Shown: piece after piece, positions 5,477 to 59,890 of the stretch
Position numbering within the stretch: the first letter of the stretch is position 1
Layout of the letters: each line of letters opens with the position of its first letter
From: Cyanophora paradoxa CCMP329
Taxonomy: Eukaryota > Plantae > Glaucophyta
Direction of reading: 5' to 3'
Length of the DNA stretch: 64,000 nt
NCBI GenBank assembly: GCA_004431415.1
Contig: QPMI01000003.1
Location: 124,001 to 188,000, forward strand
Notes under the pieces: model-generated
What the model was told of the DNA's origin: nothing
Database searches by the model: none
Seen by the model: the letters and a program-made list of their open reading frames with translations, nothing else
Translations under genes and position numbers: made by a program

Positions 5477-6143
5477 TGGCCTACCAGTTGCAATTGTACA
5501 TTTGCAGCAGAATCCGGATCAATATCCGGATCGATATCCGGAGGGCACTGCCAGATCTAGAGAAGAGGAAGCTTAAAATTAAGGCCTATAGCTAGGTTTA
5601 GGCCGCGGGTGGCAGGGACGAGCCAGGACTTGGGTGGCAAGCGTGGGCTGGGGGAGAGGGCCTTAAGCTTGCAGCGAAGAAGCGAAGAGCGCAGGCTCGA
5701 GCTCGAGGCGGCCGAGGGGCCGGGGGAGTGAGGGGGCTTTCGAATCTGAAGCCTCGAATTTGGCCGGGGGCGCTGGGTGGCCGGGGGCGCTGGGTCCGGA
5801 TCCGGAGGGTCGACGTCGCGATCGGGCCATGGCCAGCTGCAGCTGCAAGCACCTGCAGCTCGGCGCGCGCCGGAGCGCTGCGACACGGTCGGGGGCGAGG
5901 CGGGGGCTAGCGCTGCGACGCGTTTGAATTCGAAGCTCAATTGCAAACGTCCGGCTTGCGCGCATATGCGGGCCTGCGGGATCGATGCGGCCTGGCAATT
6001 CGGCTTCCCGGGGGTACGGCGACTTCTCGTCGAATCGGGGCGTTAGCTTGAGCGAGCTCCCCACGATCTGTAGCTGCCGCGGCGAGGGTCCAGACCGTCG
6101 TTTAAGCGCCCGCAACGCCTTCTCAGCCGCCCCAGCACGCGCG

Positions 6144-16527: not shown

Positions 16528-16559
<32 letters not shown>

Positions 16560-19417: not shown

Positions 19418-19450
<33 letters not shown>

Positions 19451-27980: not shown

Positions 27981-28683
27981 CTGCCAAGATCACTCGCGAC
28001 CTGCGCGGGAAAGCAAAAACCTTCAGCGGTCCGCAAGCGAAGCGCGCAGCTCAGAGAAAGCCTCCCTCTAAGAACTAGACCTATCGGCGCGGCCGGCGCG
28101 GCGCCCTCCGTCCGGATCGCGTAGTCCCGATCGGCCAAATGGGCAGCCCGTCGCCCGGGCAGCGGCAGGGCAGACTGCGCCCCGGGCTGCACGTGTGCGC
28201 GACAGGCCGGCACGTCTGCTAAAGTCCGGGATCGCCCGAATGCGCATGTCTCCGCGCGCGCAACCGACAAACTGGCGTTCTGCGCGCTCCCCGGCGGAAG
28301 GGTGCGATCTTCGCACCTTTTAGACGGCCGCACGAACGGGTGCCGGCAGACGAGCTGGGATGCTGGGCGAACCGAAGTCGGGGGCTTGAGATACAGGCCC
28401 GTGATGTGTACCCCCCCATTGCTGATCCCAGTGATCCGAGGGACCTACGGCCGGGGGGCGCAAAGGCATCGCGCTCTGGCGTGCCCAGGCTACGGTTTGA
28501 GACGCTTGGAAGCCTCCAGCGAAGCCAACCGGGGTGACGGAAGGTTCAAGCCCTTTTCGGCCGTGCGAACGTGGGCTCGGCGGCGATTCCGATCGGTACA
28601 ATCGGAGGCTAGATAGCCTAGCTCATTTGAGCGTTCGGCCGCACGCACCGCCGTCGGTTTAACAGCGGCGCCTCCCGAGCTGC

Positions 28684-39700: not shown

Positions 39701-42624
39701 GACCTGGGTGCCCCCGTCGCCCTCGGCGCCCTCCGCTTCTGGAACTACAACAAGGCGCGCCCCGCCTCGCCCTGGCGGCCCCCGAGGGGCGCGCCGCGGC
39801 TGACGCGGGCGGCAGAGCCGGATCCACGCGGCGCGCGGGGCGAGGCAGCTGCAGGTCTCGCTGGACTCGCGCGTCGTCTTCGTGGGGGAGATCGCGCGCG
39901 CCCCGGGCACCCTCACCGGCGCCGAGCGGTGCCCCCCGCCCCTCGCCCGTCGCCCGCCGAGCCCGCCCTCTCGCCCTCGCCCGAGCCGCCTGCAGGGCCG
40001 CCGAGTGCATCCTCTTCACGTCGGACGATGCCGCGCTCGAGGCCATTGACGCCTTCTACAAGTCCCGGGTTCGAGTCCGGGGAGGTTTTTTTCGCGCGCG
40101 GCTGACGCCCGACAGGGCCTTGCGGCGCCGACGGCGGCAGAGGCGGAGGCGGAGGCGGCAGCAGCGGCGGCGGCGGCGGCGGAGCGGCCGCGGACGGCGC
40201 CCAAGGCGGGGCCGGACGGGCGCCCCGTGACGTCGGCGGCGGTGCGGCCGCCGCTGTCGGCGGCGCCGTCGGCCCCATCGGCGGCGGCGGGCCCGCTGCC
40301 GGCGGGGCGGGAGCTGCGGCTGGAGGTCCTGAGCACGTGGGGGGACCCCTACTACTGCGGCCTGACGGGCCTGGAGGTGCTGGGGGCGGACGGGCGGCCC
40401 CTTGCGCTGGCCCCCGACGGCCTGGCCGCCGACCCGCGCGACCTCAACGTCATCCCGGGCCACTCCGGCGACGAGCGCACCCTCGACAAGCTGGCGCGCC
40501 CGCCCCCCGGTCCCTTGCTCCTCCTCGAAGCCCTCTTCTGAGGCGGCGGGGCGCAGGTGAACGGGACGAACGTGACGACGGACGACCGCAACATGTGGCT
40601 CACCCCCTTCACCCAGGCCCGCCCCCCCGCCCGCCCTCTTCCCCCGCCTCGGGGCCGGGGCCGACCGGCGGGGCGGCAGGGCGCCCTCCACTGGATGTCG
40701 GCCCGCCTGGCTGCGCCCGACGCGCCGCCCGTCGCCGTCTCCGCCCTCCGCGTCTACAACTACAACAAGGCAGGCCACTCCCTTGCCCTCCCTTTCGTTT
40801 CCCGCCCCGTCCCTTTCTCACCGCCTCGCAGAACTCCGACGACACGTCGCGGGGGGTACACGCTCAAACGACGCGCCCGGCCGCGCCGCGCCGCGCCGCG
40901 CCGCCGCTGAGCGCCGCGCAGGCGAAGTGCGTGCGGGTGTACGTGGACGACACGCTCGTTTCCCCCAAGGAGGGGTACGCCTCCCGCCCGCCCCGCCCCG
41001 CCCCCCTCGGCCCGGCCCGGCGCGAGCGGCGCCCTCGCAGCTTCACGTTCCGGAAGGCGCCGGGGACGGCGGCTTTTGACTTCGGGCAGACCATCCCCCT
41101 CGGCGGCCCCGCCCCGCTTGCCGCCCCTGCCCCCGTGCGCCGCCCCGCGCCGCGCCCCGAGCGCCGCTGGAGCCATCTCTCGAGCGGGGCGGGGCGGGGC
41201 GGGCAGGCGACGGCGAGGCCGGCGTCGGTGCCGGGGACGGCGAAGCGGCGCTGCGTGGGCGATGCTGTCCGCCAGGTCCGCCCCTGCCCCGCCCCGCCAC
41301 GCCCGCCGCCGCAGCCGCCCTCCAGCCACCCGGGCGGCCCGCTCACGTGCCCCGGCCGCCCGCCCGCCCGTGCAGGACTACGATCCGCCTCTCCTTCCCT
41401 CCGGCTGTGCGCCCCGCCTCGCCCCGCGCGCTCCCCGCCCTTCCCGACGCGGCGCGGGCAGACATCCTGAAGCTCGTGCTGCTCTCCACCTGGGGCGACC
41501 CGCACTACATCGGCGAGCCGGCCCCGCCCCACCCCCCCCCCCCGACGCTGTTAGCGCCGCGCCGCTCACCGGCGCCGCCGGCAGGCCTCAACGGCATCTC
41601 CGTCTGCGACGCCTCCGGCAACCCCGTCCCCATCCCCGCCTCCGGTGGCCCCCGCCCCTCTTCCCCTTCGGATCTCCGGCCTGCCTCTGACTCGGCCCGC
41701 AGCGGTCTCGGCGGTGCCGCGGAGCATCAACGAGCTGCACGGCGTCTCCGGCGACGTCCGCACGCCCGACAAGGCGCGCCGAGCCCCTCGGGGCCCGCGC
41801 TCCCGCCCCGCGCACCCCTCGCGACGCCCGCGTTCTTGCAGCTGGTGGACGGGACGAACGACACGTGGAACGACGAGCACATGTGGCTCGCCCCCTTCAC
41901 CCGCGGCCAGGCGCGCCGCACCGCCCACCCCCGCCTGCCCCGCTCTTCCGGTCGCTCTGAGCGTCGGGGCGGGGCAGCCGCACGTGGTGTACGTGGCGTT
42001 CGAGCAGCCGGTGGCGCTCTCCGTCTTCACCCTCTGGAACTACGCCAAGACGCCCGCCCGCGGCGCCCAGGACTTCGAGGCCCGCCCCGCCCCCCTCCCC
42101 TCGCGGCGCCGTTGGCGCGCCCGTTCTGACGAGGGTGAGGGGGGGCAGCTGTATGTGGACGACCTGCTGGTGTACAAGGGGGTGGCGCGGCGGGCCCCGG
42201 AGGCCAAGCCCGGCATCCAGGACGGCCAGCTCCACTTCGCCCAGGCGAGCCGCCCCCGGGCCAGGGGCCAGGACAGCGCCCCCGCCCCTCACTTTTCTGA
42301 GGCGAGGGGCGGGCGGGGCGCAGGCGGTGGTCTTCACGGACGACGCGGCGATCGTCGCCCGCGAGCGGCCCCGCGTCTCCTTCACCCCCCAGGACTCCGA
42401 GGGTCCGCCCCCTCCTCTGGTCGGCCGGGCCGGTGCTGAGGACGGGGCGGGGCGGTGCAGGGTCCGTGCTGCTCTACAACGACTCGCGCCCGATGCTCCC
42501 GACGGTCGCCTCCTCCGTGGGCGCCGCCGCCGGGGCCGGGGCGGGGCGCCCCGCCGCCTCGCCCCCGCCCGACTCGGAGCGCCCTGCCACGTCCGTCGTC
42601 GGCGGGCGCGCCCCCTCCCGCTAG
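33704..42624 (+). CDS. KATNIP: Katanin-interacting protein (KIAA0556), ciliary/basal-body protein with repeated DUF4457-type domains
   Basis: N-terminal LALLQERQRLLKKLR..ERGFNVFISGAN. Four repeats of the S(S/T)WG..YxGLxxxxV motif (SSWGNKKYVGLTE, STWGDPYYVGLSGIEV, STWGDPYYCGLTGLEV, STWGDPHYIG|LNGI), followed by HMWL/VWLAPF and (W/Y)NY(N/A)K motifs. Also ADPPDINVLPGYGKDPRT and FRKAPGTAAFDFGQ. Start codon less certain. Confidence 0.9.
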
Positions 42625-42925
42625 CCCTCACCCTGCCCCTAGCAAGCACTTCGTGCTGCGATCTCGAAGTAGACGAGTATATATATATTGATTTCGAGGT
42701 CTGCTCGTCTGAAGGGGGGTACCCAAGCAATCGGTAATCTGTACCCAGCTGCAGGAGCAGCAGAGATCAGCAGCTTGCAATTGCAGCTCAGCTCACCGCT
42801 TCTGCGCGTGCTGCGTTCGGGTCCGTGGCTGGCATGGGCACGGAAGTGTGTACTTGGAAAGATCGTTAGCTGACGCGTGCACCTGGCCTGTCGTCGGGGC
42901 TGTCGACCGGACCGTCAAGCGTATC

Positions 42926-42981
42926 GCGTTACGGCAGTTACGGGGCAGTTACTTTGAGCAGTTACTCTGAGCAGTTACTCT
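42926..42981. repeat. Tandem GCAGTTAC octamer array upstream of the kinase gene
   Basis: Perfect copies at 42934-42941, 42945-42952, 42958-42965 and 42971-42978, plus degenerate GCGTTAC at 42926-42932. Confidence 0.85.
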
Positions 42982-43192
42982 GCGTCCCGCAGCCAGGCCT
43001 AGGCCAGCCCGCGCCGTGCGCGGTCCGACAGGTCGACCGATCGAAATCCACGGCCGATTGCAGCTATAGCTAGCAGCGATCATCGACTCTCTCGTGTCTT
43101 CAGAGGCGCGCGCAGAGCGTGCTTCGCGATTCGCACTTGACGCGCAACTGCAGTCCTTGCAATTGCAATTGGCCTAGGCAACGCGTACGCGG

Positions 43193-46100
43193 ATGGCGGA
43201 TGCACATGGCGCGCGCTCCGGGTGCGCGATCGCTGCTCATGATCAACGACTCGTGATAGAGCTAACGTTGACGAGCCGCGGCCGGCGCTCGGGCAGAAGC
43301 GTCTACGTGCGGCTCTGTGCAGGATGCGTAGACACGGCCACAAACGCCGGCGTCCCGGCGGTGCAGCCGCAGCGAATCGACTCGGATACAGACGCCTTCG
43401 ACGAGAGAGCCTGCCCCCAGTGTAGGCGCCACCCGCTGATCATTGGCGACCTGCGCCGCCAGGATGTCTGCCCGGACCTCGACCAGATCGACACGGCTGT
43501 TGCACCGCTCCTGGAGTCCGACACACGGATGTACGCGCTCGAGGAGCTCCGGGGCTGCGGCAACTTCGGCTCGGTCTTCAGAGCCCGCTGCTCTGTGCTC
43601 GGCCTTCGCGGAAAACCCGTGGCAGTCAAGAAGTTAAAAAACAGCTCAAACTCGAGCTCCCGGTGTGTCCTCTTGAGAACGGGAATCGATTTTAGATCTC
43701 AGCTGACACAGCTGCAGCCACTCACTCTGGACAGCCGAGAAGGAAGTCCTTTTCCGCCTCCTCCGGTTGCGGTTCTACGGCGTCCCTGCGCTCCTAGACT
43801 TTTCGAAGGAGCACAGCGCCCTAGTGATGACCTACATCTCGGGCACGAGGTCCGTAGCGGCGAGACGCGCCTTGTGCTGGAATCAATTTAATTAATTAAT
43901 ATAATTAACTTTTATTTTCAGTATTTCAGAGTGGTTCGAAATGAAGGCTGCTTTTTACCGCTCTGAGGTCATCGCATTCCTGAGCCAGGTACGCTGACCG
44001 TGAGGGGTGGCTGCAGTGTTTATGCTCATGATCAGGTACTGCGGTACATGAGATTGCAGGCCTCTTTGATTCTCGGCTTCTTTCAAAAGAGATGGAAGAT
44101 CGTCCACCGGGACATTCACTGCGGCAACGTGCTTGCTTCAACTCCAGGAGGCCGGAATATGCAGTGAGAACATCATGATCATTTTTTGACGCAGCGCCCT
44201 CACTCTATTTAACTTTGCTGATACGTGTACGTGGTTTCATGCCCCAGGTTTATGTTGTGCGATCTTGGGCTGGCCGCAGACATGTACATGAACGATCACG
44301 AATGCAAAGAAAAACAGCTGCAGTGCAAAGGAACTCTGTGTCCGCAGAACGGGGTACCTCCCATTATTGCTTTCAATTGCTTGATTGCCATCAAAACATA
44401 TAACCTGCAGCAGAGCCGCTCTTTCGACCCGCAGTTTGACGTCTTCTGTGTGGCTCTCGTCGCTATCTCAATGCTCCTCGGCAAGGTCATTGAAGTCAAC
44501 ATGGACAGCGACGAGGCGGAGTCCCACCGGCGTGCTCTGGAGGCGGGCTCCGAGCCCTTCTCGAAAATTGATTCCAATCTCCGGGAGATCTTGTCTCAAT
44601 GTATGAAGGTGCTTCAATTTCTTATTTCAAACTCTTGCCGAGCATGCGGCTGCGTAGTTCTGACTCTAAATCTGTAATTTGTGTGACAGAGACCCGGTGA
44701 ACCTGCAGCTGATCGGATAAAGGATGCGGTGGATCTCTGGGCTGCGATGAACATGCGAGAGATGTTCAAAGAGGATATAGACTATTTTCGGCAAGGTATG
44801 GCTGCGGTCCGATTTGATTTCAGCTTGACTTTTCCATGACAACGGACATTTTGGAGGTTTTTTGCAAGGGGAGAGTGTCGCTGTTCAAGCCCAGGTGGAG
44901 GTGCTCGAGCGCGAGCTGCGCTCTGAGTTCTGCATGCGCAGACGGTAGAGCATCCTGTGTGCATATGCTGTGCGCTCTGTTCTGATCATAGATTTCTTAG
45001 ATCACAGACGCGAGAATTTACTGCCTCTTCATCAGTCGCGATATCTCAGCTGTCAGGCTTGACCTCTCAGTATCAAACAATGAGCTCGCTGTCTCAACAT
45101 CCCACGGCTGTCTACGTATCTCAGCCGGGAGCTGCAGCTGATGTCGATTTTGAATATGAGCAAATCATCGTCAGGCACCAGACTCCGAGACATCAGCTGG
45201 ATGTTCAACAGCTCGTAGAAGCGATTTGTAACTTCGCTGCGCTCAGAGTTCCAGCTCGAATTTCAGGCCTCGGCGCTACGCTCTCGTTGGTGCGCTCGGC
45301 AGTGCAAATTCGAACATGTGTAATTATATATATAAGTAAGACTGAAATAAGCTACGTATACGCAGATGGCAAGCATTGTTGTGCGCTCCATCCGCAGCGG
45401 GAGCACTATTGTCGAACTGGATTTCCCCAAGGTTCTGGCTGAAGCCATGTTCCAATCGGTCGCGAATTGGCACAACGGAGAATTGGACATTAATCTGGCC
45501 TTGCACGTACGTGAGCTTGGTATTGTTGAGATTTCTGGCAGCAACCGGCCAACATTTCGCCTCCCTGGTTCGTGGATATCCAGAACGCCAAAACTTTCTC
45601 TTTCTAGCTGGGATGTGGCTCACTCTCAATTACATGTTTCATTCAGATATCGATTCAAATGCCGAAGTCGTCTGCAGCTTTGCATGGGGCGGCGATTCCC
45701 TCGTGCTCTCAAGATTTAGAGCGGGTACATGCATGCGATCGATCGCGAGATCACTGTAGCTATCTACTACTCCAACTTGCAATCGGTATTCATTGCCCGA
45801 TGACAGGTGGAGACGCAGATCCCGCAGTCAAAGCATTGGGTTACAGCGAGACTGTCCAGCGGGGGCAGCTCATTGTGGAAGCTGGGAAAGGAGGCGTCCC
45901 GGCACAGTTGACATCAGACGACCTGATAGTACTGGCTAAGATAATCGAAGCCAACCCACAACTCAGGTGCTCGCTGTCCGCCAGCAATCTAGACCTAGAA
46001 CGGCATTAGAACCAAACTTTGCTGTTGCGCATGCACGGTACCCGGTCGACTCCTTTGCATACAGCACAATCGAGCTGAAGGTGTGCACATTGCAGTTTAT

Positions 46101-47315
46101 TTTGATATCCGTGCAGACTTGCACATTGCACTCACTGACTGAGCTTAACTGACGCAGCTTGCCGGACCGGCGCCGGCACCCTTCCAACATGCGCGTGATC
46201 ATCATTCGAAGTCGGACTTCGAAAAGGAATTCTGCGACGCCTTGGTGCTGCTCGGGCGAGCGGTGGGCGGGAGCAACCGAACAGCCCTGTGCTTGGGGCG
46301 CACCAGCATGGGCAAGTCCATCAATCTTGATATGCCTTCTTCGACTGCGGCCTGGAACAGGTTTCTGAAGGAGGCCCTCGCGTTCTCTGCGACTCCGCAA
46401 TCTTCTCTGCGGATTTTTACGCTGTGCAATTTCCGCCTTGATCACGACGGGGCAGCAGCCGTCATCAGCGCTATTTCCAACGCTGACGGTCTCGAAGTTG
46501 TTTCGATCACCAACATTGAGCTGCCAATCCCCGACCGTAGAACGCGAGAGCGCACCGATCGCGATTCGTTCAAGGAGCTGTTTTCGATCGCCGACATCGA
46601 GTTTCCAATTGCAACATCCGACCGTCGAGGGCACTCCGATTCGTTCGACGAGCTCTTTGCCGCCCTCAGCAGCCGCCCGGCCATCCATACCCTTGCCATG
46701 AGCCGTGTGACTGCAGGCTGGCACACTTCCGACACAGAAGCCCTTGCGATACAAGCACGCCGCCTCGTCGATGGGATCTGCTCCATCCTCCAAGGCGTCT
46801 GCGGGACTCTGAGAGAGCTTACTCTGCAAGAGATGAGCTTTGCACAACAGGGGAATTCGAAACAAGTTGCGGAGGCAATTGGACGTTGCGAAAGCCTGCA
46901 AGGGCTTGAGCTGCGTCAGATCATCTTGGCCCCACGCGAAGAAGACCTTACGACAAACTTTTTGACGGAGGCCTGGGACGACTTCCTCGATCCAATCAGC
47001 AATCTTCCTGCGCTCAAGCGCTTATCCCTCGAGCAAATCGAGTTCAAATTCGAACATGTGCGCATTCATGCTCGCGCTTGCCATCGCATGATTAATATTC
47101 ACATCGATATCCTGGTCGGTGCTCACATATGCAACGGGCAGATTGACATGCTTGCCTCGTGCATGCAACACAGAATGCCAGCCTTGCGGGAGTTGCGCCT
47201 TGAACAATGCTTCCAAGATACTCATAGCGCGAATGTATTTGTGCTCTGCAACGCGGCCGCTCTGCGCTGCGTGGGCCTTCCTTCTGGGGAGACCTTCACT
47301 CTCGCAATCAACTTC
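43193..47315 (+). pseudogene. 5' part of LINE-disrupted multidomain gene: protein kinase + linker + RNI-like leucine-rich repeats
   Basis: Kinase: GCGNFGSVF (43553), VAVKK, EKEVL, LVMTYISG, HRDIHCGN (44105-44128), DLG (44261), DVFCVALV, ILSQCMK..DR. LRR-like: LRIFTLCNF, LRELTLQEM, LQGLELRQI, LPALKRLSLEQI, MPALRELRLEQC. Exons join in frame via GT-AG introns up to ...ETFTLAINF at 47315. Confidence 0.8.
47302..47315 (+). repeat. Left copy of 14-bp target-site duplication TCGCAATCAACTTC
   Basis: Identical 14-mer at 55595-55608, on the other side of the LINE. Confidence 0.95.
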
Positions 47316-50300
47316 AATTCAATGAATTCGCACACACCGAGACAATACGGCTAATGATAGAACTGAGGTGTCCGTAAAGTGTCAAGTCGAAAGATGAGCC
47401 TACTGGTTACGCCGGGTAGGGAACCTAACAGCCATCGGACAGGGTGGAGCTAGTCAAGGAGACGTAAACTAAAGCAAAGCTAACCCAGAGCAGAGAGCTA
47501 CTACCTATACATCTAGCCTAGCTTAGGACTAGGCTACAGAGAGGACTACCCAGGGGTCTACGAGTGCTGCCTGCTAGTGCTGCCTGCCTAGGGACCGTCG
47601 GGACGTCCGGAGCTCGCGGGCTGTTCTACTGTACGGTAGGAAAGCCAGGACGGACCCGCGGTCTAATCTGCCTACTCTCGACGCGGCCGCGACTACAGTT
47701 AGCGCGGCGGGCTCCGCGTCGAGGGGCCGCTCGCCCGAAGCGCGGGTGGAAGCACGTCGGCGTAGAGGGGCCGAGGGGAATGAGGCGAGGGGGACGTTGC
47801 GGGGAAGAAGTGGGGCGGGACGGAGAAGGTCGGCGCCGGCCGTGGCGGGGAGGGGAGGGTCGGATTTCTCGGTCAGCAGGGCTTCCAGCCTCGAACCAGC
47901 CGCCGCACCCCCGCCGCGGGCAATTGCGAGCCCCCTCCGCGGCGGTCCTTCAACCCACGGTCCTGGCACGATGGCCGGGGTATCTGGTGGGTGCAACGAC
48001 CAGCCGAAGCCTTCCGCCAAGCCTTCCGGTCCATCGTTCCCTCCCTGTCGAGGCGCGAGGAGCGTTGGCGAGGTCGTGAGTGGGAGGCAGGGCCAAGAGA
48101 GCGAGCAGGAGGGCAGAACGGGAGAGGGAGGCAAGGCAGGCGCTCGCTTGGGCGGGGCCCAGCGAGTCGGACGGGGCGGCTATATCTAGTGTGTGCGAGG
48201 CTAAGAGTAGAGCAGGGAAGTTTCTCGAGGACTAGGTATGGTGAAGTAGTAGGTAGGTGGTGTCGAGAGTCTCCTCCCGACGTAGCCCCCCCCCCCCCCC
48301 CCCCCCCTTTCGCGCGACTCGGGGTACCGTTTAGAGCGGGCTAGGATGTGGCTCCCAAGGGCGTACCTTGACGCAATCGTAGAGCTCTTGGGCGCGGAGC
48401 GCCGCCTTCCAGCCCGCGTACTCCGGTGGGCAGTCTGCGTTCCGAGCGGCGTTGAGTAGATTGTGAAGGCGAATCGGCCCGTCGCAGGCGGCGCAGACTT
48501 CCTTACAGGTCCGGGGCCGCGGGCCCGCTCTCGGGCGCGGGCGCCCGTGCGGGGCGGGCGCGGTCGCTTCTTTGAGGCCTGGAGACGCGGCAGTCGCGTT
48601 CCCACTCCGCGTTGATTTCGCAGCGACGTGACCAGAGGCGTCGGGCCCGCTCCAGAAGCGTCTGCCGAACGCGTTTAGCTGCGCGTGCCGCGTACCGGGG
48701 TGCAAGGTTCAGGCAGCGTGCGAGGGCGCTTTCTAGACTCTGCGGAGCAAGGCCCTGGAGCACCCAGAGGCGCGGGTACGCGTACGGCCTACCATCGTAG
48801 CTGCGCGCCTCGGCGTCGTCGTCCGCGACGCGGAGGAAGATTGGGACCAGGTCGGGGCAAGGAGGGCTCCTGCTGGCGGCGCTGTGAGTCCGTGGGCCTC
48901 TCTGTATGCGCAGAGCAGAAGTCGGTTCAGTTCGCGAGCAGTCTCCGCGCGGTGCGCGACCGCATGCGGACCCGGGCACAGGAAGACGTGCGGGAAAGTT
49001 TCAGTCGGGCCTGCGGTAAGAGCCGTCGGTGCCCGGTTCGGGCGGCTGGGGCCCGCTGCTGGTTGGGCATGCGAGGCCTCTGGTGCAGTCTGGCTGTTCT
49101 GTGAGGCTGTCGGGCCGCTAGTCTCTGCACGAGGGAAAGGCGTTCTGGTGGCGCAGCCCGCACAGCGTCCCCCAGGGTTGCAGGCGGCGTAGAGTTCCTT
49201 CTGGTCACGTACCCGGACTTCGTTCGCTGGTAGCGAGCTACAGAGCAGCTGCGTCCGAAACTTGAATAGCGCGTTGCGGGCTCCATTGGCGCCTTGGAAT
49301 CGGGAGCCTACGCTCGTTTCCGCATATAGCCCTGCTATGTCTGCGCCGTCGGCGCCTCGGCGCAGGAGCGCGCCAGCCAGCGGTTGTTGGGTCCAGGCAA
49401 AGTGCGTCTGGTGCTCGTGAAGTGCGTCCATGTGTGCCTTGGGGTCCCCTTCCACCCGTCGTGTGCGCCCGTCGGGGTCGCTGATGGTGAGCACCGCAGG
49501 CATGCTGAAGGCCGGCGGCAGAAAGAGAGGTTCATGCCGGTTTTCGTCCGCCAGATCCAGGTCGGCCGCCACGTTCGCTCCGGCGTCCGCGATGTCGTTG
49601 TGGGGTCGCGGGCGTCGCCCTTCGCGTGCGCTTTGACTTTGACGAGTTTGAGCGGCCGCCCGCGCTCCTCTAGCATTGTCCTGAGCTTGCTCCATGCGTA
49701 CAGTTCCGCGGAGCAGGCGTGCCGGATGTATTCCCGCGGGCTGCGGCAGCTCGCGTGCTGGACGAAATCGGAGTACCAGCGGATCGCGTTCATGTTGTCG
49801 ACGTGTAGAACCGCTCCGAAAGGCGAGAGCAGGTCAGCCATGAGCACCGCCTGGAGTTCCGCCTTGTTGATCTCCTGCAGGCCCCGGAGCCGGGCAAAGA
49901 AGTCCGTGAGGATACCCGGCGGGTGCAGGCTTGCGCCAGTTCTGAGGTCCGTTTCCGGCCAGTGTACTGCGTAGCCCGCGCGAGCGTTAACCGTCTGGCC
50001 CTCTTTCAGGCTCCCGTCCGTCCAGGCGTACGCTGGGGCGTCGGCCACGTATGAGCCGCCGGACGCCGCCTCGGCCTCCAGGTGCTCTTTGCGGTAGCGG
50101 GCTTCGAGGCCCTTCCAGGTCTCCAGGTATGCAACCCAACTGTACGGATCGGCCTGATAGTAATATAGCTCGCGCGCCTCCTTGTTGGAGCTGACCGGGG
50201 GCGCTTCATCTTGCGGCAGGGGGGGCAAGTCGGGCGGGTTCGCCTCGAGCGTGGCGAGGTGAGCGGCGTCGGGCTCGGAGAGGAGGTGCCAGTTGACCCT

Positions 50301-53300
50301 CTCATCGCCCTCCTGCTTTGCCTGCAGCAGCATCCGCCATCGGTGCGCAGTGATGGTCGCGGCCGCCTGCCTGAAGGGCTTGAAGTATTCAAGACGGGCT
50401 TGGCGCAGGACCTGGCGACTGGCGCGCCCCGAGCGCGTCTGTACCTGCCCCTCGCATTCTTCCACGGGGGCGCCCGACACTTCTACTAGCTCCACCGTGC
50501 CGGGGATCGTGCAGAGTGCGGACGCGTGCTCTACCCATCCTCCCACCGCCGTCCCGTACTTGCCCTCGTCATCGCAGGTGCTCGTCGCCCGGCAGGCCGC
50601 GCCGGCGCCTTGAGGGCAGACGTGGTTGTCGTGCCAGTGGCGGCGGCCCTCTCCCGGTACGATATTAAAGCGGCGCGCAGCTGGGGCGGGCGGCCCTTCG
50701 CGGGGTCCGAGCTGACAGTGGCCATCGCAGCGGCAGTAGGCTCCGTTGGCCTCGTCGTCGGCCTCTTCTGGGACGGGGACCCAGTGCTCCAGCCGGCACT
50801 CCGTCGCTACTAGGCTGCCGGCCTCGGCCTCAGCGGAGCGGACCCGGCCGATTTCCGGTACCGCATCCGTCTCGTGAATCGTTGCGAGGTCGTAGTAGCA
50901 GACGAAGTCTCCCGGTTGGTGAATTAACTTCCTTGCCCCGCCCGGAAGCTGTACCATGGCCGAGGAAGGGGTACCGGGCGGTTGCCGCATGGGTATCGGA
51001 GGGCGCCCGAACCGCGCCCGTCGATCGTGAGGGCCTTGGCCACCGCCTTCCACCAGGCGGGCGCTGCCCAAGGGAGCGTGCCGCGGGGGGCGCGGAGGTG
51101 CAGGTCTCGCCAGGTGCAGAGGCGTTCCCCATCGCGCGCCGTGACGTCGGACATCCAGTAGAGCCGTGCGCGGTGGAGGGCGGGCGCAGCCGTGCTGAAC
51201 ACTTCCCGGGGAATGTGTGAGGTAAGCACGAATTCCCGGCGCAGTTCCGCGGGGTCGGGCCAAGTGGCTGCGGGGGGTACGGCGTGAACAAGAAGCGGGC
51301 GTGGTTGGACTGGATCCGGTAGAGCCGGCGCTGCAGGAGCGGCATCACTGCGGCGATCGCATTCGATCGAGCAAGCTGGCGTGACACTGGGGCGTTCAGG
51401 AACTCGGTCGGCAGCAGCGGGACGCCTAGCTTGCGCTGGAGGTCCCGGATGCGGTGCATCATCACCTGAGATAGCAGCTCTTCCGGCTCGCCACAGAGGC
51501 GGACGAGCAGATCCGTGATTTGGTTCTTGGCCATCATGTGCGCTGTGCGCGGCAGGCTGTACGTGCCGTGGCTCCAGAGCGCGTAGTTGGAAGTCGATGC
51601 CGCCAGGCCCCCATGGTGCTTAACCACGCGCATCCAGATGGCATCTAGGCGATCGCACTGCCTCTCTGTGAGCGGCGTCACTTTGAGCCCGTAGGCGATC
51701 CGCGCCTGCACGACGGCCTCGACAACGTAGCAGGCCTCTTGCGCGGTCAGCTGCTTACGAGCTATGACCGCCACCGTCTCGCGAGCCTGCGTTTCCATCT
51801 GTCTGATCTGCTCCTTCCACGACAGGTTCGCGGTCAGGTAGACGCCGAGCAGCTTGAAATGCTCGCCCGGTTTCAGCTTCTTGCCGACCGGGACGCGGGG
51901 ATTGCCGAGCAGCGGGGGTTCAGGCTCGGGTGAGACGTTGTTGTACGCAAACTCTGTTTTCCGCGCGTTGACGGCGATGTCGTGCAGGCGGAAGAATTCA
52001 GACGCCACGTCCGCGAGCATCTGGATCCCTTCGGCCGATCCGCTCATCCACTGCGTGTCGTCCGCGTAGGCGCTCCCGGTCACCCGTGCGGGGGCGAAGT
52101 CCGCGTCGTCTTCGCCCATGCCCATGACGTACGCGACCCCCGCGCCCCCTTTTCCTGCTCGAGCCTGTCCAATTCTTGTTGAGCGCAGAGCAAGGCATCG
52201 TAGAAGATGAGCCAGTGGAGCGGGGATTCGATGCCGCCCTGCGGGAGCCCACATTCGAGTTCAAACACGTCTGACAGTCCGTGGCCCGTGATAGCTCGCG
52301 CCCGGCGTCGTTCGAATATGTTGCGGTGCAGGTCGATGTACGTCTCGGGGCCCCGATGCGTCGGAGGGAGAGCTCCATGCTGGCCCAGGAAACTGAATCG
52401 TACGCCCGTCTGATATCCTGTAGCAAGAGGTAGATGGGCTTGCGGTGCTCCTTAGCGTCCTCTAGAATAGCGACCATTAGGTGAAGGGCATCATCGGTCG
52501 CCTTAGCCTTCCTGAAGCCATAATTTACCCCCTTAAGGATTCCGTGCTTCTCGATGGCCTCGGCTAGCCGTTTCGTGACGAGGCCCGTCGTTAGCTTGAG
52601 GCCAACTTCCTGCAGCGTGATCGGGCGGAGGTTCCCTTCAATGTCTCCGTCCCAGCTCCCGTTCTTGGGGATCCCGAAGATATTGCTCTCACACATCTCG
52701 GCGGGCAGGTCGCGCAGGCGGAGGGCCTCGCAGACGATGGCCATCAGGAGCCGACGACCGCGGGGGGGGTACGCCTCTGGATCCATGGCGTCCGGCAGGT
52801 CGGGGTTCCAGAGCGTCTTCAGGATCGCGTTCGTGCAGTTGGAGGGCCCTCCCGCTCCATCCGTGAGCGAGCGCACGTGTGCCCCTAGCTCTTCGTACGT
52901 AGGCTCAGCCATGACTCCCGCGAAGGCTTCCGCGGTCGCCACGTGCGTCCCGAGGGGGCGGTAGAGCGCGCGCCAGAAGTCGGGGGGCAGGAAGGCTAGC
53001 TGGGAGTCGGGTATTAAGTCCGCTGTGCACCCTACCAGGGGGTTTCTCTTCGCACACCACTGACGCCAGTGCTCCGCCATCACTGCCTTCACCTCCTCGG
53101 GGGCCGTGTAAATTTCATAGAAGTTGCCTTCGCGCGCGAGGCGGGTGACGTGCATGATCGGCTCCCCCCTGGACCGCTCCAGAATGGAGTCTAGATAGCT
53201 GCGCAGCTTGCGCGGGTCTGCAAACCGGGCCTGGCGCGCAGTAACGAATTCCTGGATCTGTCGCTGCTTCTCTGCGCGCGTCTCGTGTTGGTGGCGCCGG

Positions 53301-55594
53301 CGGACGCGGTTGCGCCATGCGTTCAGCGACCGGAAGTACAGCCGCCACGCTACGTAGCGCCCCGGGAACGGCGCCTCGTCGTCAGCGTCGCGTACGGGGC
53401 GGCGGGGCATGGGTTCGGGTCCGGGGACGAGCCCTTTGATGAGAGCCTCCAGTTTCTCGATCCGGGCGACCAGCGGGGCCGACGGCAAGCCTCCGGGCGC
53501 TTCAACAGTCCATCCAGCGATCAGGCGCTCCACTTTCTTGGACATGACCAGCTGCCACGGCACCGCTCTGCGAGTGGGCGGGCGCGATCCGCGGGCTTTC
53601 AAGCATTTGTGTTCCTTAGCGAGTGTCAGCACCGCCTCCGTGGCCTGTCGGTAGAGAGAGCTGACCCGGTCCCTGCGCTCTTGTTCCGTGCCCGCCGCGC
53701 CTAGCGCTTTCTCAAGATCGCTTTCCAGGGCTTGCAGACGGTCTTCTACAGCCTTTCGGAAGGCCGGCAGCTTCTCCTTCTCAAGTAGGTGCGGTGCGAA
53801 GAGCGGCGGCGGGTGCGCCGGGCGGGCATCGCCCGCGGGCGGTCTGGCGAGTTCGGCTTTGAGCAGATCGTAGTCGGCCATGACCGGGAAGTGGTCAGAG
53901 GGGTGCGGTAGCGCCACCTCTGGCGGCAGCGGGTGCACCGCCAGGAGCGCTGGCGCGAGACCTGCAGAGTGCAACACCGCATCGATACGTCCTGCCGAGA
54001 TGACCGCGGCGCCTTCGGCGACGGCGGGCCCGTCCATTTGCTGGTCCTGTTCCGAGTCCGAGTCGTCGGCGCCGTCGTCCCCGCCATCCTCTTCGGCGCC
54101 GTGCTGGCTCGGGCCGCGCCTGATGAAGGTAACTTCGTGTTCGTGGCCTTTCTGTGTCGCCGCGTCAACTAGTGCCCAGGTGCCGGTCAGTTTTCCCCAC
54201 CACTCGCGTTCCGGCGTCCAGGACTGGACGAACCGTCCCGCGCGGATGCGGGACGTGGCCGGCGTCTTCACGGAGTTCCAGTCGCCGAGAAGGATGAGGT
54301 GCGCGGTCGAGCGCGATCGGAAGTCCGCGTAGATGCGCTCGATGCATTCGAGGAGCGCCGCCTGATCGGTCTTGTGCTCAGGCTTCCGCTGGGTGGCCGG
54401 CATGTATACGCTCACTACGAAGAGCTGGCGGTTTCCCTTAAAGCGCATTTCACAGCCGGCAAGCCGGCCCGGGTAGTGATAGTGGCGCGCGATGTGCCGC
54501 GCCCAGGGCGCCGCCACCCATAGCGCCGCTCCGTTTCCTTTCGGTTTTGTTTTCTTAATTGAGTGGATTAGGCGACCCCGCGTGATCGAGCTCTTGGGGG
54601 CTCGCCGGGCTCCGCTGCCGGGGTGAAGAGCGCCGAGTGCAGTTCGGCGCGCGTGACTGAGAGCTCTTGGAGAGCCATCACGTCGACCCCCATTTCACGG
54701 CGAAGTCTTCGGCCTGCTGAAGCCGGCCCTCGGACGTGCCCCGCACGTTAAAGGTCATCATCCTGAGATTCCCCTCCGGCTTGTGGCGCATGAGCGATGG
54801 GGGCGGGCCTATGAGGGGGCTCCCTGAGGCGTAATGGGTGGTTGGGAAAAGGTCGCCAAACGAGATATGCCCCGGAGCGTTAGTGTTGACGTCTACAGCG
54901 GCAGACACGTTAGGGGGGTCGGACAGCGTCTAGGGTTGGAGGATGTCTGTGCTCGGCGGGACGCGCGCAGCGGTCCGACTGATCAGCTAGTTGGTCACAT
55001 CTGGCTGCCCAGAGATGCGCGTGCACGTGGTTCCAGGCGTGCGTGTGCCTAGCCGCCCCGGACCCGTCGCCTGTGCGCCGCATCGTCCAAGTCTCAAAAG
55101 TCTGCGGTCGGGAAGCCGTCAAATTACAGCTGACACGTACAGTAGCGGCCTCGCAGGAAAGGGGCGCTAAATGCGCGTCTGGGCGGGAAATGGGCGATGC
55201 GGCTTGCCCAGCCTCAGCGACTTGGCGCTTGGGGAGGAGGAGGAGGCGGGTCTGAGAGCGGGTCGGTAGAGAGCGGGTCGGCAGCGGGTGTATGGCGAGG
55301 CGTGGCCAGGGAGGCCAGACGTAGCTCGGCAAGGAGATTGATTCAAGAGGGCGGTCCAGGGTGTGCGTGAGACGCGGTAACTGCTTGCAGTTACATCACC
55401 CAGGGACTCCCGGGCGATGTTGCCGCGTTGGCGGGGCGGTTTGGAGAGAGTGGCCGGCATACCTACGCAGACATCGCGGCGGACGCTACCTAGGCTGTCG
55501 CGGCCTCTACTCTCGCACTGGTGATCGCGCACGCAGCGCTACGCTGCGAGCTAGGCGGGTTGGCAGGCGCCTTCCTGTTTTTTTCCCACGGGGG
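47316..55594 (-). mobile_element. Non-LTR retrotransposon (LINE), ~8.3 kb, ORF2 = APE endonuclease-RT-RNase H-CCHC; apparently 5'-truncated (ORF1 absent)
   Basis: APE: MMTFNVRG, DVMALQE, VVSVYMP, LILLGDWNS, GRIDAVL, SDHFPV. RT: LRPITLQE, NYGFRKAKAT, LLQDIRRAYDSVSW, GLPQGGIESP, SAYADDT, FKLLGVYL. RNase H: WTDGS, KAELQAV, HVDN, VKVKAH, HNDIADA. C-terminal CAGC..ETFPHVFLC. Bounded by a perfect 14-bp TSD. Confidence 0.95.
48331..54791 (-). CDS. LINE ORF2 polyprotein (several apparent 1-nt frameshifts in C/G homopolymers)
   Basis: Pieces in ORFs 54678..54908, 51998..54517, 52080..52268, 50830..52254, 50924..51229, 49335..51263, 48733..49695, 48503..48979 and 48331..48705 are collinear. Confidence 0.85.
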
Positions 55595-55608
55595 TCGCAA
55601 TCAACTTC
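55595..55608 (+). repeat. Right copy of 14-bp target-site duplication TCGCAATCAACTTC
   Basis: Matches 47302-47315 exactly. Confidence 0.95.
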
Positions 55609-56987
55609 GGCTTTCATCGATTACATCAGCCGAAGCGGATCATGTCTTCTGCGCTAAACTACCTCGAGGCTGAATTGGAAGGAGCTCGAGAGGAAGCCGC
55701 CCACGCTGTAGATCCGCCGTCGGCAGGCTGGGCGGAAGTCTCGGACAAATTGAACCTCATCCTCCCGAAGAGCCTCGAGAGCGACAAGCGTATGCCCCTC
55801 TTCAAGCGGATTCTCTTCGAGCGCAGGTGGCCACCGAAAGACGATCCGCTAACTGCGATTGGTAAGCATTTAGCTCATGCCCGCGCACACTCGATTGTGA
55901 GAAGACTCCGACGGCATGCGCAGGTCGTTTAAATACGGAGCTGGGGGAGAATGACACGTCGAACGAGCAAGACAGCATTTCCGAGCCCAGCGCGCGAGAA
56001 AAGCGACAGCGGATCCAGAGCCCGAGATCGTCAGCCGACGACGTCGACGTCAACGTCAACGTCGAAGTAGAAGTGGTTCGTCTGCGTTTGTCATGCTTCC
56101 GATTAATTGCTCAGCGGCTGGCTGAAATCCAACGATCTCTGTGTAGATGGGATTGGCTGGCTGTCGAGCAGATGTCGATGAAGTGGAAGATACATCTGAT
56201 TATGATCCAGATCCGGAGTCTAGATCTGCTGATCATGAAGACCTTCGTGATCATGAGGAAAGCGCGCGGAAGAAGCAACAACAGAGCAAGCTTAAGAGCC
56301 CAGGTCATGATCAACTTGAAGATCTAGATCTAGAAGTGGTTCGTTTGCAACTGCGTTTGTCATGCGTCGGACTTGAAATTGCTTGCTGAAATCGCTGCGT
56401 AGCCGGGTGCTGGATGCGAGCGGAAAGGAAGAGGGGAGAAGTGGCAGCGCTGGGTTCTACTGTCGTGCGGAGGAAACTGCTTCTACTGCAAGGACCCTCG
56501 CATAACCAGCAATCTGCCTGAGCTCCTCAGCGAGTGGGAGATCGATCACTTGGAGCCAAGATCGGAGGGGGGCAAGAGCGCGCTGCAGAACCTTGTCGCT
56601 GCTTGCAAGAATTGCAATTTGTGCATTCAATTTAATATTTCAGAATTTTCTTTGATCATGAAGCGAGTGCGGAACTGAGTGCAGAGCAGACGGAAGAGCG
56701 ACCTCTCGCATCGCGCATTCATCAAGCGATTCAAGGGCGAGAACTCCGGAAGTGGCATCGTGGCGGACTACGTCCGCTGCCACGCCCTTCGCAAGAACGG
56801 CCTGCGCTGCGAGCTCCCCGTGGAAGCAGGCGCCGAAAAGTACTGCGGGTGCGTGTCTTGATCTCTAAGCATCCATTTGCATGGAAAATGTGAGTTCGAA
56901 AAGTGATCGGCTCTGTGCAGTGATCACAGGGGCTTCGTTTGGCCGACAGATGACGAGCTATTTGGGCAAATATATATGATTTTGTGA
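55609..56987 (+). pseudogene. 3' part of the LINE-disrupted gene: acidic linker + HNH (McrA-like) endonuclease + C3H zinc finger
   Basis: Reading resumes in frame after the TSD (LAINF|GFHRLHQPKRIMSSALNYL). Exons 56403-56620 and 56690-56848 give GGNCFYCKDP..WEIDHLEPRSEGGKSALQNLVAACKNCN|LRKSD, then RCHALRKNGLRCELPVEAGAEKYCG|DH. Stop 56985-56987. Confidence 0.82.
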
Positions 56988-57519
56988 GATATTACGTATT
57001 TTTGTGTCGCGGTGTTTTGCGTTCTGTGTATTGTGTCGGGTCTTAATCAAGACGTTTTGTTATGGTACTGTACATGTGACGGGCCAGTCTTATAATATTG
57101 AGCCTTTATCTTAGATCTTTTAAATCCCTTAGATCTCCTACGATTTAGGTGAGATCTCCCTCGTGTGCCCTTCGAACTCGTATGATGGAGCGGAGACGTC
57201 GACGTCTTCTAGATCTGAAAGAGAAAGATCGCGATCGCGATCCTCTCGTCAAGCCGTCACCAAGACGGGAAATTCGAATTCACAGAAGAATTCGAATTCG
57301 AACCGGCATTGAACAAGAATCATCGAAATTTAAATCTCTCTCGAGCTGTCTACTAGGGGCCAGTCTAGGGCGCTGCTGCTAGGCGGGGCGGTGCGGGCTT
57401 GCTAATTGGAAACTGAACAAGAACATGATTCATCGATATCATTGAGCAAGCAATCCTGATAATCTCCTGATAATGAAATTCAAAGGAACATGACTCATCA
57501 TTAGTCTAAAAGTAGCTGC

Positions 57520-59890
57520 CTACGCGGGGCGGCGCTTGCGTTCGCCGGGCTTGCCAGGGAGCAGCCGCGAGCCGTCCCAGAAGAAGTACTCCTGCGGAGT
57601 CTGTCCGATGTGCACCGCGCACCTGCCGTCCAGGGTTAACGTTTGATGTGTGTGTGCCAGAGGGCGGGCGGATCGGACCAGCACGGGGTGACGGGGGAGA
57701 GCTTGAGGCCGGACGGCTTCAGGCGGGGGCACCCCTGCGCACTGCTCGGGGCGCTCAGAGGGCGAGAGGGGAGAAAGAGAAGGGGCGGAAAGGGGGTACT
57801 GGATCTTGATCAGGTCGGGGCTGGCCGCGCTGATCGACTGGACGTCCACATCCGCGAGATCGATCCGCTGGGGGTACGTCAGAGGCGAAGCGGAGAGGGG
57901 TACAGGGCCCAGGGCGGCGCACGCGCAGGCGGGGGAGGCAGGTGAGATCCATGTCGCGCGGCCCCGGCATCCCGCCGTACTGCGCGCCCGCGGGTCATGG
58001 GGGGGTACCGGTGGCGATCGCGAGGGGGGCGCGGCGCACGCAGAGGGTCTCGAGGCGGGGGGCGCCGCGGAGGGCGGCGGGGACGGCGGCGGCGATGCGG
58101 GGGAGGTTCTCGAGGGTGAGCTCCCGCAGCAGCGGCGCCTGCAGCGCGAAGCTGGCCGCGCTCTCCACGTGCCGCACGGCGAGCTCCCTGCGCCGCCGCT
58201 CGAGGAAAGGCGAGGGGCCGGGGCGGGGGCGGCGGGTCCGGGGCGGGCCTGAGGCGCGGGGCGGCGACGTGGAGGGCGCGGAGCGGGGCGCGGGGGGCGG
58301 AGGCGGGCCCCGCGTAGCCGGCCGGCATCCCCGAGAGCTCGAGGCGCTCCAGCAGCGGGCTCCGCCTGCAGAGCGCCGCGAGCCACGCGTCCGTCAGCAC
58401 CGACGCCGCCACCAGCACCGCCGCCTGCGCCGCGGCGGGCGGGCGCCGCTCAGCGCCGCGTCGGGCGGGCCGGCGCGGGGCGGCGGGCGGGCGGGGAGCG
58501 GGCCTCGCGGAGGGACGGGGCGCGCAGGTCGACGTCGGCGTCGGCGCCCCACGGGCCGAACTCGAACTCCTCCAGCCTGCCGCGGCCGCCGAGTCAGCGG
58601 CCGGGCGGCCGGCGAGGGGGGCTCCACGGCGGGCGCCGGCGGGCGGACTTGGGGGCGTCGAGGAGGAGGGTGGAGCGGTGGCGGCAGCGCATGCGGACGA
58701 GCGGCGGCGTGGTCTCGCTGGAGAGCCGCAGCGAGCGGCACGCCGGCAGCGGCAGCGGCAGCCGCTCGTCGGGGCCCCCGTCCGGCTTGATCCTGCGCCC
58801 CCGGCCCGAGTGGGCCGCCGCAGAACGCTGCGGCGCGGCGGCGCGCGGGCGCGCGTATGCGCACATTATGCAGAGCGTCTCGAGGTTGACGCAGGCGGCG
58901 AAGGGGGCCAGCATCGCCGCGGATGGGCCCCACTCCGGCATCTGCGGGCAGAGTTAGGGTCAGGCGCCGCCCGCGGTGGCCGGGCGGCCCCGCACGGTGA
59001 TGTGGAGGTGCCTCAGAGCGGGCCCGAAGACCCCGGCGAGGTCCGTCTTGAAGAGCAGCACGCGGCCCGTGCGGACCGCTGCGGCCGCCTCAGCGGGCAG
59101 CGGGCAGCGGGGAGGGGGGCGGGGGGGTGGAGGAAGGCGGGGCGCGCTGGAGCAGAAGCCGTTGAGGTCGGGGCAGTGGACGGGGGCGGAGGGGGTGCTG
59201 AAGCTGCGGAGGGCGGGGCAGCCGGGGGCCCGCACGCGCAGCGCGGGGGCGGGGATCATGCTCTTCCACATGTCCTCCTGCAACTCCCACTCGAACCACT
59301 CGTCCTGCGGGGGGGCCGGGGCGCGCTCTCGTCAGACCCCGCCGGCACGGAGGAGCCGAGGGAGAGAGCGCGCCTCCTCGAACGCGTCCTCCGTCTCCTC
59401 GTACTCCTCCTCGAAGTCGTCGCTCGCGTCCCAGTCCCCCCCGTCCCTCGGCGCCCCAGGCCAGCCGGCCGCCCTGCCGCCCCCGGCCGCCCGATCGACG
59501 CGGCGGGCGGGCGAGCTCGGCGGGGGGCGCACCCGCGGTCCGGGGCGCGGGGGCGGCGGCCGGCGAGCCAGATGCGCGGGCTGTCGAGGCGGACGCAGGC
59601 GCCGCGGCGCATGACCGTCGAGGCGCCCCTGCGCCGCCTCCGTCAGGCGGGCCGAGCAGCACCGCGCCGCACCGCAGGGCGGGGCGGGGCGGGGCGGGGC
59701 GGACCAGGGGCGGGGGGCCTGCAGGCCGTCGCAAGTCCAGATGTTGACGGAGAGGCCCTCGAGGCGCGGGCAGTCGCGGACGGTCAGGCTCTGCCCCGGC
59801 TGCGGGGAGCCCCACATCTCGTCGTCCTCCGCCTGGTTGCGCTGCCAACCAGCCGCAGCCTGCGCGCCCGCCGCCGTCGACACGAGAGCT

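Follow-up and report, generated by a model that had tools for sequence, protein, structure and literature searches.

A 21-exon gene for a putative kinase-LRR-HNH protein, split by a LINE, in a Cyanophora paradoxa contig

Results

Gene structure and LINE insertion

The window analyzed here is a 64,000-nt stretch of DNA from Cyanophora paradoxa CCMP329 (contig QPMI01000003.1, positions 124,001 to 188,000, forward strand; coordinates below are those of the window). It holds one gene of 21 exons, encoding a protein of 1,350 amino acids (aa), that is broken inside an exon by a long interspersed nuclear element (LINE). With the LINE removed, the spliced frame was open throughout; its 5′ part codes for 1,004 aa and its 3′ part for 346 aa, and the total is at the lower end of the 1,350–1,400 aa estimated in a preliminary description of the locus. 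The protein comprises, in order, a Cys finger, a divergent kinase, likely leucine-rich repeats (LRRs), an acidic linker, an HNH domain and a zinc finger (Table 1), and neither half contained frameshifts or stops.

The LINE was flanked by 14-bp copies of a target-site duplication (TSD) at 47302–47315 (left) and 55595–55608 (right), whereas the longest repeat in 1,000 shuffles of both junction windows was 10 nt. Downstream of the right TSD only one frame was open, the continuation of the LRR exon, the other two stopping at codons 15 and 20. The proposal that LINE removal joins the flanks in frame was thus confirmed. The upstream frame was stop-free up to the TSD and the next ATG lay 34 nt beyond it, so that two distinct ancestral genes would not fit here; the split is best attributed to the LINE, and not to two such genes. 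Pfam matches within the LINE were to AP endonuclease (E 1.5e-5), reverse transcriptase (E 1.7e-8) and, weakly, RNase H (E 0.021). DNA run X4, which may be the source of the window itself, had a depth of 887–3,871 across the LINE against 53–64 on the flanks; although this is depth and not copy number, it suggests that the LINE family is multicopy. Contigs differed from the window by a single extra G, C or A at each of 12 positions listed within the LINE (47722–55230), at full DNA depth, so that the frameshifts of the LINE may be assembly errors.

Twenty sequencing runs held at least half of the words from the 5′ region, and six of these, at ~0.6, were presumed to be RNA. This was guessed from the word fraction, none being annotated as RNA, and they are called likely-RNA runs here. 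X15, X16 and X17 were used for the 3′ half, X15 and X17 for the 5′ half; the three have separate study codes and the same year, and may belong to a single campaign. Runs X21 and X24 did not cover the gene and were given no weight either way.

Contigs of the likely-RNA runs displayed 19 of the 20 coding introns as joints. For the 5′ half, 13 joints covered 14 introns (X15, X17), one joint carrying a 16-nt micro-exon (46065–46080, in the LRR region) as letters between its ends; the same region contained an 84-nt intron (47058–47141). In the 3′ half, each of the five introns was seen as a GT..AG joint (X15, X16, X17). The first coding intron (43222–43296) was derived from contig piece coordinates and from EukProt protein P0001 (tig00000025_g7956.t1), which is identical to aa 1–398 of the model, and the ends of the leader intron were placed from a 69-nt gap in the contig record coordinates. 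The GAG acceptor needed at ~44797–44990, formerly regarded as the weakest junction, was used at 44856 in both covering runs. Intron retention at 44945–44949 would end the frame at once and leave a protein of 398 aa with the kinase alone, as in the public model P0001. Across the intron at 45725–45806, X15 depth climbed from 48 to 213, with cover inside the intron, and no step occurred in X17; an internal start there, giving an LRR-only transcript, is possible.

Table 1. Features of the interrupted gene and of the LINE within it, in window coordinates
Feature	Coordinates	Strand	Basis or details
5′ leader	42709–43192	+	exon 42709–~43105, likely GC-AG intron ~43106–43153, then 43154–43192; X15 and X16 contig pieces
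Start codon and Cys-rich N-terminus	43193–43550	+	C17-x2-C20 ... C49-P-x-C52
Divergent protein kinase, aa ~92–334, 7 exons	43540–44795	+	Pfam, motifs, contig joints
61-nt intron, GAG acceptor	44796–44856	+	joint 44793>44855 (cut +2) in X15 and X17
Region aa ~369–587, beta-GS-beta motif (IVVRSIRSGSTIVELDF)	44857–45724	+	no profile match
Likely RNI-like LRRs, aa ~588–1004	45807–47315	+	motif excess, Atlas LRR_6 leads, contig joints
LINE retrotransposon	47316–55594	-	AP endonuclease, reverse transcriptase, weak RNase H (Pfam); antisense, inside exon
LINE-derived stop TAA ending the 5′ product	47352–47354	+	frame reading
LINE-derived leader of 3′ contig; candidate outward promoter near 55100	55094–55594	+	X17 contig, depth step
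Remainder of interrupted exon; ATG 55642 opens 335-aa open reading frame (ORF)	55609–55861	+	frame reading
Acidic linker, two exons	55924–56338	+	32 D/E vs 14 K/R in 115 aa
McrA/IscB-type HNH nuclease domain, split by intron 56621–56689	56403–56700	+	Pfam, residues
C-x9-C-x11-C-x2-H finger, spans intron 56849–56920	56776–56929	+	spacing
Stop codon and 3′ untranslated region	56985–57067	+	8 A run at 57067 in X16

Transcripts of the two halves

The X17 contig spanning 43718–47344 measured 2,647 nt against 2,646 nt predicted, placing the kinase and the LRR region on one contig. In X15 and X17, the 5′ contigs continued unbroken from the exon at 47142 to 47344, 29 nt inside the LINE, and the frame stopped at codon 1,017, giving a 5′ product of 1,016 aa that lacks the nuclease. 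No GT occurs in 47316–47354, that is, before the LINE stop. The 3′ exons were found on separate contigs reaching into the LINE 5′ end, back as far as 55474 (X15) and 55094 (X17). Of the outcome proposed as refuting, with kinase, LRRs and HNH on separate transcripts, the separation of the HNH part was thus seen in this strain, whereas kinase and LRRs share one contig. No contig joint across the LINE was present among the 15 joints listed out of 43, and no empty (LINE-free) allele was seen, the X4 DNA contigs entering the LINE from both sides, unbroken at the TSD. Since the halves stand on separate contigs and the 5′ frame stops within the LINE, the fusion is probably not made, and probably cannot be made, in this strain.

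In the three likely-RNA runs, depth rose from 46, 0 and 35 in the bin 54628–55124 to 3,181, 3,724 and 495 in the next, compared with level X4 DNA depth over the same two bins (930, 887). This gives a weak hint of an outward-facing (antisense) LINE promoter ~500 nt from the LINE 5′ end, near 55100. The 335-aa ORF of the 3′ half holds a helical segment, the acidic linker, the HNH domain and the finger; in the longer leader it is preceded by five ATGs. Ten joints of likely-RNA contigs lay within the LINE itself (49421–54380), partly from diverged copies, and six of them were GT..AG on the plus strand; antisense LINE sequence is therefore apparently transcribed and spliced.

By analogy, the pattern of the locus looks like LINE 'gene breaking', on which Wheelan et al. 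are said to have reported in 2005 for L1. In mammals, as told in excerpts of PMC2176070, an upstream transcript enters an antisense L1 and a LINE-derived first exon captures the downstream exons. The present locus shares with the mammalian cases the antisense LINE in a gene, the upstream transcript entering it and the apparent capture of intact downstream domains, but differs in that the insertion is exonic rather than intronic, the LINE has an RNase H-like part and the host is likely a glaucophyte alga.

Domain content

The Cys-rich N-terminus matched no Pfam profile and is neither hydrophobic nor signal-like; we take it to resemble the second half of a RING finger. The kinase matched Pkinase (PF00069) at profile positions 4–246 of 263, with 61.3 bits against a cut-off of 31.7 (E 1.3e-16). 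It had been described as having intact motifs, which was supported by GCGNFG at 96, VAVK at 118, the αC Glu (AEKE 138), HRDIHCGN at 214 (catalytic Asp and Asn) and DLG at 238, but did not extend to the HRDxK lysine or the APE motif. When the kinase was searched against PDB, 70 sequences fell at E <0.001, none close (best 4e-7).

RNI-like LRRs are likely at aa ~588–1004, judging from the repeat pattern. Four strict LRR cores, spaced by 29, 39 and 29, were observed where 0.5–0.7 were expected (p 0.004 and 0.0005, 2,000 shuffles), and a looser pattern gave p 0.056. Atlas pointed to LRR_6-type clusters at 0.87–0.90, all ten named matches belonging to one clan, at low recognition. The earlier assignment of RNI-like LRRs agrees with the strict-core excess and the weak Atlas leads; in Pfam, NCBIfam and PDB the region had zero matches. 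The octamer GRTSMGKS at 46296–46319 is Walker-A-like and lies in the LRR register, probably by coincidence.

The preceding region (aa ~369–587) matched no Pfam or other profile. SEA domains and TRADD-N domains have the same GS-turn pattern. By eye, the beta-GS-beta pattern at aa 445–560 agreed with the bacterial TRADD-N columns in the part of PMC8195603 used here, where GS stands at the beta2-beta3 turn and is preceded by h-x-h-x-x-h. TRADD-N (PF20694) was nevertheless not supported for this segment: a profile from a narrow set of 34 cyanobacterial PF20694 domains gave no hmmsearch match, the hhalign score of 11.2 was equalled by 34 of 150 shuffles, and a position-specific scoring matrix gave 16.6 bits, a value attained in 44 of 300 shuffles, where left-out true members scored 65–109. 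PF20694 was matched five times in one cyanobacterial genome (L125, L127, L129, L130; G003, contig C9), and three of these matches share a strand and lie less than 4 kb apart.

The McrA-type HNH domain matched PF01844 with 44.4 bits against a cut-off of 21.4 (E 1.8e-11) in the profile search that had been set as a refuting check. All its expected residues were in place: CFYC, IDHLEP (D1251, H1252), N1266, CKNCN (N1275) and K1278. The best NCBIfam models were Cas9d and IscB, with scores far under their cut-offs; phage HNH models were matched as well, and the spliced end of the domain reads like viral HNH proteins. The finger reproduced the proposed spacing exactly (C1306, C1316, C1328, H1331) and matched zf-primase weakly, under the cut-off (E 7e-4). 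The acidic character of the linker was also borne out (Table 1). The introns that follow the acidic exons, at 56062–56146 and 56325–56402, have three blocks in common (14, 15 and 9 nt), and the linker was therefore probably built by a tandem duplication of an exon with its intron. PADLOC matches to PD-T4-6, Mad6 and PtuB were set aside as generic kinase and HNH similarity and not membership.

Genomic context

The window is eukaryotic, GC-rich DNA that also carries genes for a single-chain fatty acid synthase, an HlyIII-family protein, ribosomal protein L3 and a DUF4457 protein. The kinase-LRR-HNH gene lies directly past the DUF4457 gene, within a lower-GC island (GC content of 0.54 and 0.51 in its two halves, compared with 0.79 in the DUF4457 gene), and no Rfam family matched in a scan of 42600–57600. 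The fatty acid synthase I (14600–28000, minus strand) is of fungal/mycobacterial type, with beta- and alpha-type domains in one chain at one locus. The DUF4457 gene (36000–42620) has repeated units, and several of its introns apparently start with GC, as judged by sequence. A second low-GC, intron-rich gene at 1–5500 has GGA-rich repeats, a weak Beta_helix match (E 8e-4) and a likely membrane span near 5300–5370; presumably it encodes a polymorphic-membrane-protein-like surface protein.

Relatives

When P0001 was searched against 1.84 billion protein representatives, 2,913 matches were obtained at E ≤0.001, and the best 150, apart from the gene itself, were generic kinases, 23–36% identical. 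The top match (P0002) ranks high merely by summing four PAK-like kinase domains, which stand in tandem in its 2,027 aa. Among the best 149 kinase matches the HNH motif pattern occurred in none, and one of them scored weakly (E 0.019) against the post-LINE segment. When 27 of the 149 were scanned with Pfam, no HNH or LRR families appeared. Protein searches with the LRR exon gave 0 matches among 7,990 candidates of 526–2,000 aa. For the HNH exon, none of four candidates matched and there was no annotated protein of at least 127 aa, while for exon 2 the only match among 657 candidates was P0001, the EukProt model of this very gene. Scans of viral, prokaryotic and metagenome sequence gave no relative of the kinase, the LRR exon or the post-LINE exon. 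The HNH exon had three generic viral matches, the finger exon had one match, weakening to E 0.006, and plasmid kinases 21–26% identical were found among 15 matches listed. The orphan status of the gene is only as firm as this coverage, because the collections searched hold few intron-rich algal genomes. No paper on a kinase-LRR-HNH order was found in a literature search in which subscription literature, including the main Crinkler survey, lay mostly outside the scope.

Comparison with known systems

RNase L and IRE1 also combine a sensor, a (pseudo)kinase and a nuclease in a single chain, and the parallel suggests that a degenerate kinase could gate a nuclease without full catalysis. The present protein differs from them in that its nuclease is of the HNH DNase type instead of KEN and is distant from the kinase, and its candidate sensor is LRR-like and placed after the kinase; no KEN ribonuclease match was obtained in P0001 or the following exons. 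In NLR and STAND receptors, too, LRR-like repeats and enzymatic effector domains share one chain, but here the effector is C-terminal to the LRRs, and no Pfam match to NB-ARC or NACHT was found in the exons scanned. The HNH domain shares with those of McrA, IscB and Cas9d (PF01844; NF040563, NF049971; PDB 4h9d) a CxxC ... DH ... N ... CxxCN core, although only this core of ~50 aa is common to them, RuvC and guide-RNA parts being absent and the domain being split by an intron and placed on a kinase chain.

Crinklers offer another eukaryotic parallel, being modular proteins that couple a kinase to a nuclease which it is thought to regulate. According to excerpts of PMC5289972, about one-sixth of Crinkler C-termini couple a kinase to a restriction endonuclease (REase), the kinase being thought to regulate the nuclease, and CR proteins carry a Ubl header and include HNH among their toxin domains; CRN-like proteins are found among free-living eukaryotes as well, as stated in part of PMC12957317. 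The present protein has no LxLFLAK-like motif (a search for LxLFxA had no match), and instead of a Ubl header apparently begins with a Cys-rich N-terminus of 85 aa. Its kinase is partnered with HNH rather than REase and is separated from it by ~900 aa (the aa 369–587 region, the LRR-like repeats and the linker), and no family expansion was seen in protein searches. The predicted protein would work in the manner of Crinkler kinase-nucleases, RNase L/IRE1 or NLRs, yet belongs to none of these families.

Discussion

The best reading of the locus, to which we assign a probability of roughly one half, is that of an orphan gene, split by a LINE not long ago, for an intracellular DNase that is gated by a kinase and serves defence or conflict. 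The absence of a signal-like N-terminus would agree with this. In the intact protein the LRRs would bind a trigger, whereupon the kinase would phosphorylate either its own chain or the acidic linker, which bears Ser/Thr; this would release the HNH domain and the zinc finger onto DNA, and the outcome would be restriction of an invader or abortive cell death. An orphan gene with low GC, whose best kinase matches reach only 23–36% identity, is what would be expected of a fast-changing conflict gene.

Several observations weigh against this reading. The HRDxK lysine is replaced by His, while Lys is found in 124 of 150 proteins of the comparison set, and no APE motif (no xPE) is present, compared with 122 of 149 kinase matches, so that its kinase activity may be weak or, as in a pseudokinase, absent. 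Atlas recognition of the LRR region (1,826) was below the guide value of 2,300, and single-sequence AlphaFold folds had a predicted local distance difference test (pLDDT) score of 35 (LRR) to 38, too low for use. None of the best 149 kinase matches matched the LRR, HNH, finger or aa 369–587 parts. Conflict effectors usually occur as expanded families; here no paralogue or orthologue turned up in protein searches, which did not extend to the whole genome. The contigs drop rare forms, and transcript start, strand and level are not readable from them. Finally, the strain is viable although the gene is broken and a transcript of the free HNH is present.

This last point constrains how the nuclease would be controlled. 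Today the 3′ half would be driven by an outward-facing LINE promoter, much as L1 does when it breaks genes in mammals, and the free HNH could be tolerated if it needs positive activation, if the acidic linker acts as a DNA mimic, or if translation is poor owing to the five upstream ATGs. Because the 3′ half is transcribed without kinase and LRRs, it is unlikely, unless translation is poor, that the HNH domain is held off by the LRRs alone; positive activation, or inhibition by the linker retained with the HNH domain, fits better. A more ambitious version of the kinase-gated DNase might be proposed only tentatively: an algal single-chain immune effector, with an LRR-sensing, kinase-gated HNH DNase but no NLR NTPase, caught in mid-fission via the outward LINE promoter, the linker serving as a DNA mimic that silences the free nuclease.

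It is unlikely that the gene is instead a young chimera without host function, in which a captured prokaryote- or virus-type HNH domain was joined to a kinase-LRR gene and the transcripts are by-products of the LINE and leftover promoters. Such a chimera would agree with the orphan status, with the best HNH scores going to IscB/Cas9d and phage models, with tolerance of the break and with a kinase degenerate at two motifs. However, the 20 introns are clean (the 3′ half has five, two of which fall within the HNH domain and the finger), and together with 1,350 codons free of stops and frameshifts they point to long residence under selection, and the catalytic residues of the nuclease are intact.

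A role in DNA upkeep rather than defence seems slightly less likely still; the protein would then be a structure-specific nuclease under kinase control that serves in repair, in meiosis or in programmed turnover of DNA. HNH domains are found in eukaryotic repair enzymes (the match to ZRANB3 was weak, E 0.47), the N-terminus is not signal-like, and both halves are covered by contigs of three runs for which no infection is known. Enzymes of this kind are usually conserved across lineages, yet only generic kinases were found among the 1.84 billion representatives, and loss of the fusion is tolerated. Still less credible is that a full-length fusion is made in this strain by a rare LINE-skipping splice or from an empty allele: rare forms are dropped from contigs, the joints seen are 15 of 43 and antisense LINE sequence can be spliced, but the RNA contigs run unbroken into the LINE without a GT before the stop and the X4 DNA contigs (X4 being perhaps the window's own source) are unbroken at the TSD on both sides.

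The putative kinase-gated DNase is so far represented by a single broken copy, and its function is a prediction. The cell-autonomous immunity of free-living algae is poorly known, and annotation can miss fusions of this type, since P0001 comprises only the 398-aa kinase part and the HNH exon has no annotated protein of at least 127 aa. L1-style gene breaking outside mammals is also suggested. The LINE has provided a natural experiment in which the nuclease half is transcribed without kinase and LRRs, making the gating directly testable. If the reading is true, the kinase-LRR-HNH chain would be a DNase-based sensor-effector design standing beside NLRs, RNase L/IRE1 and Crinklers.

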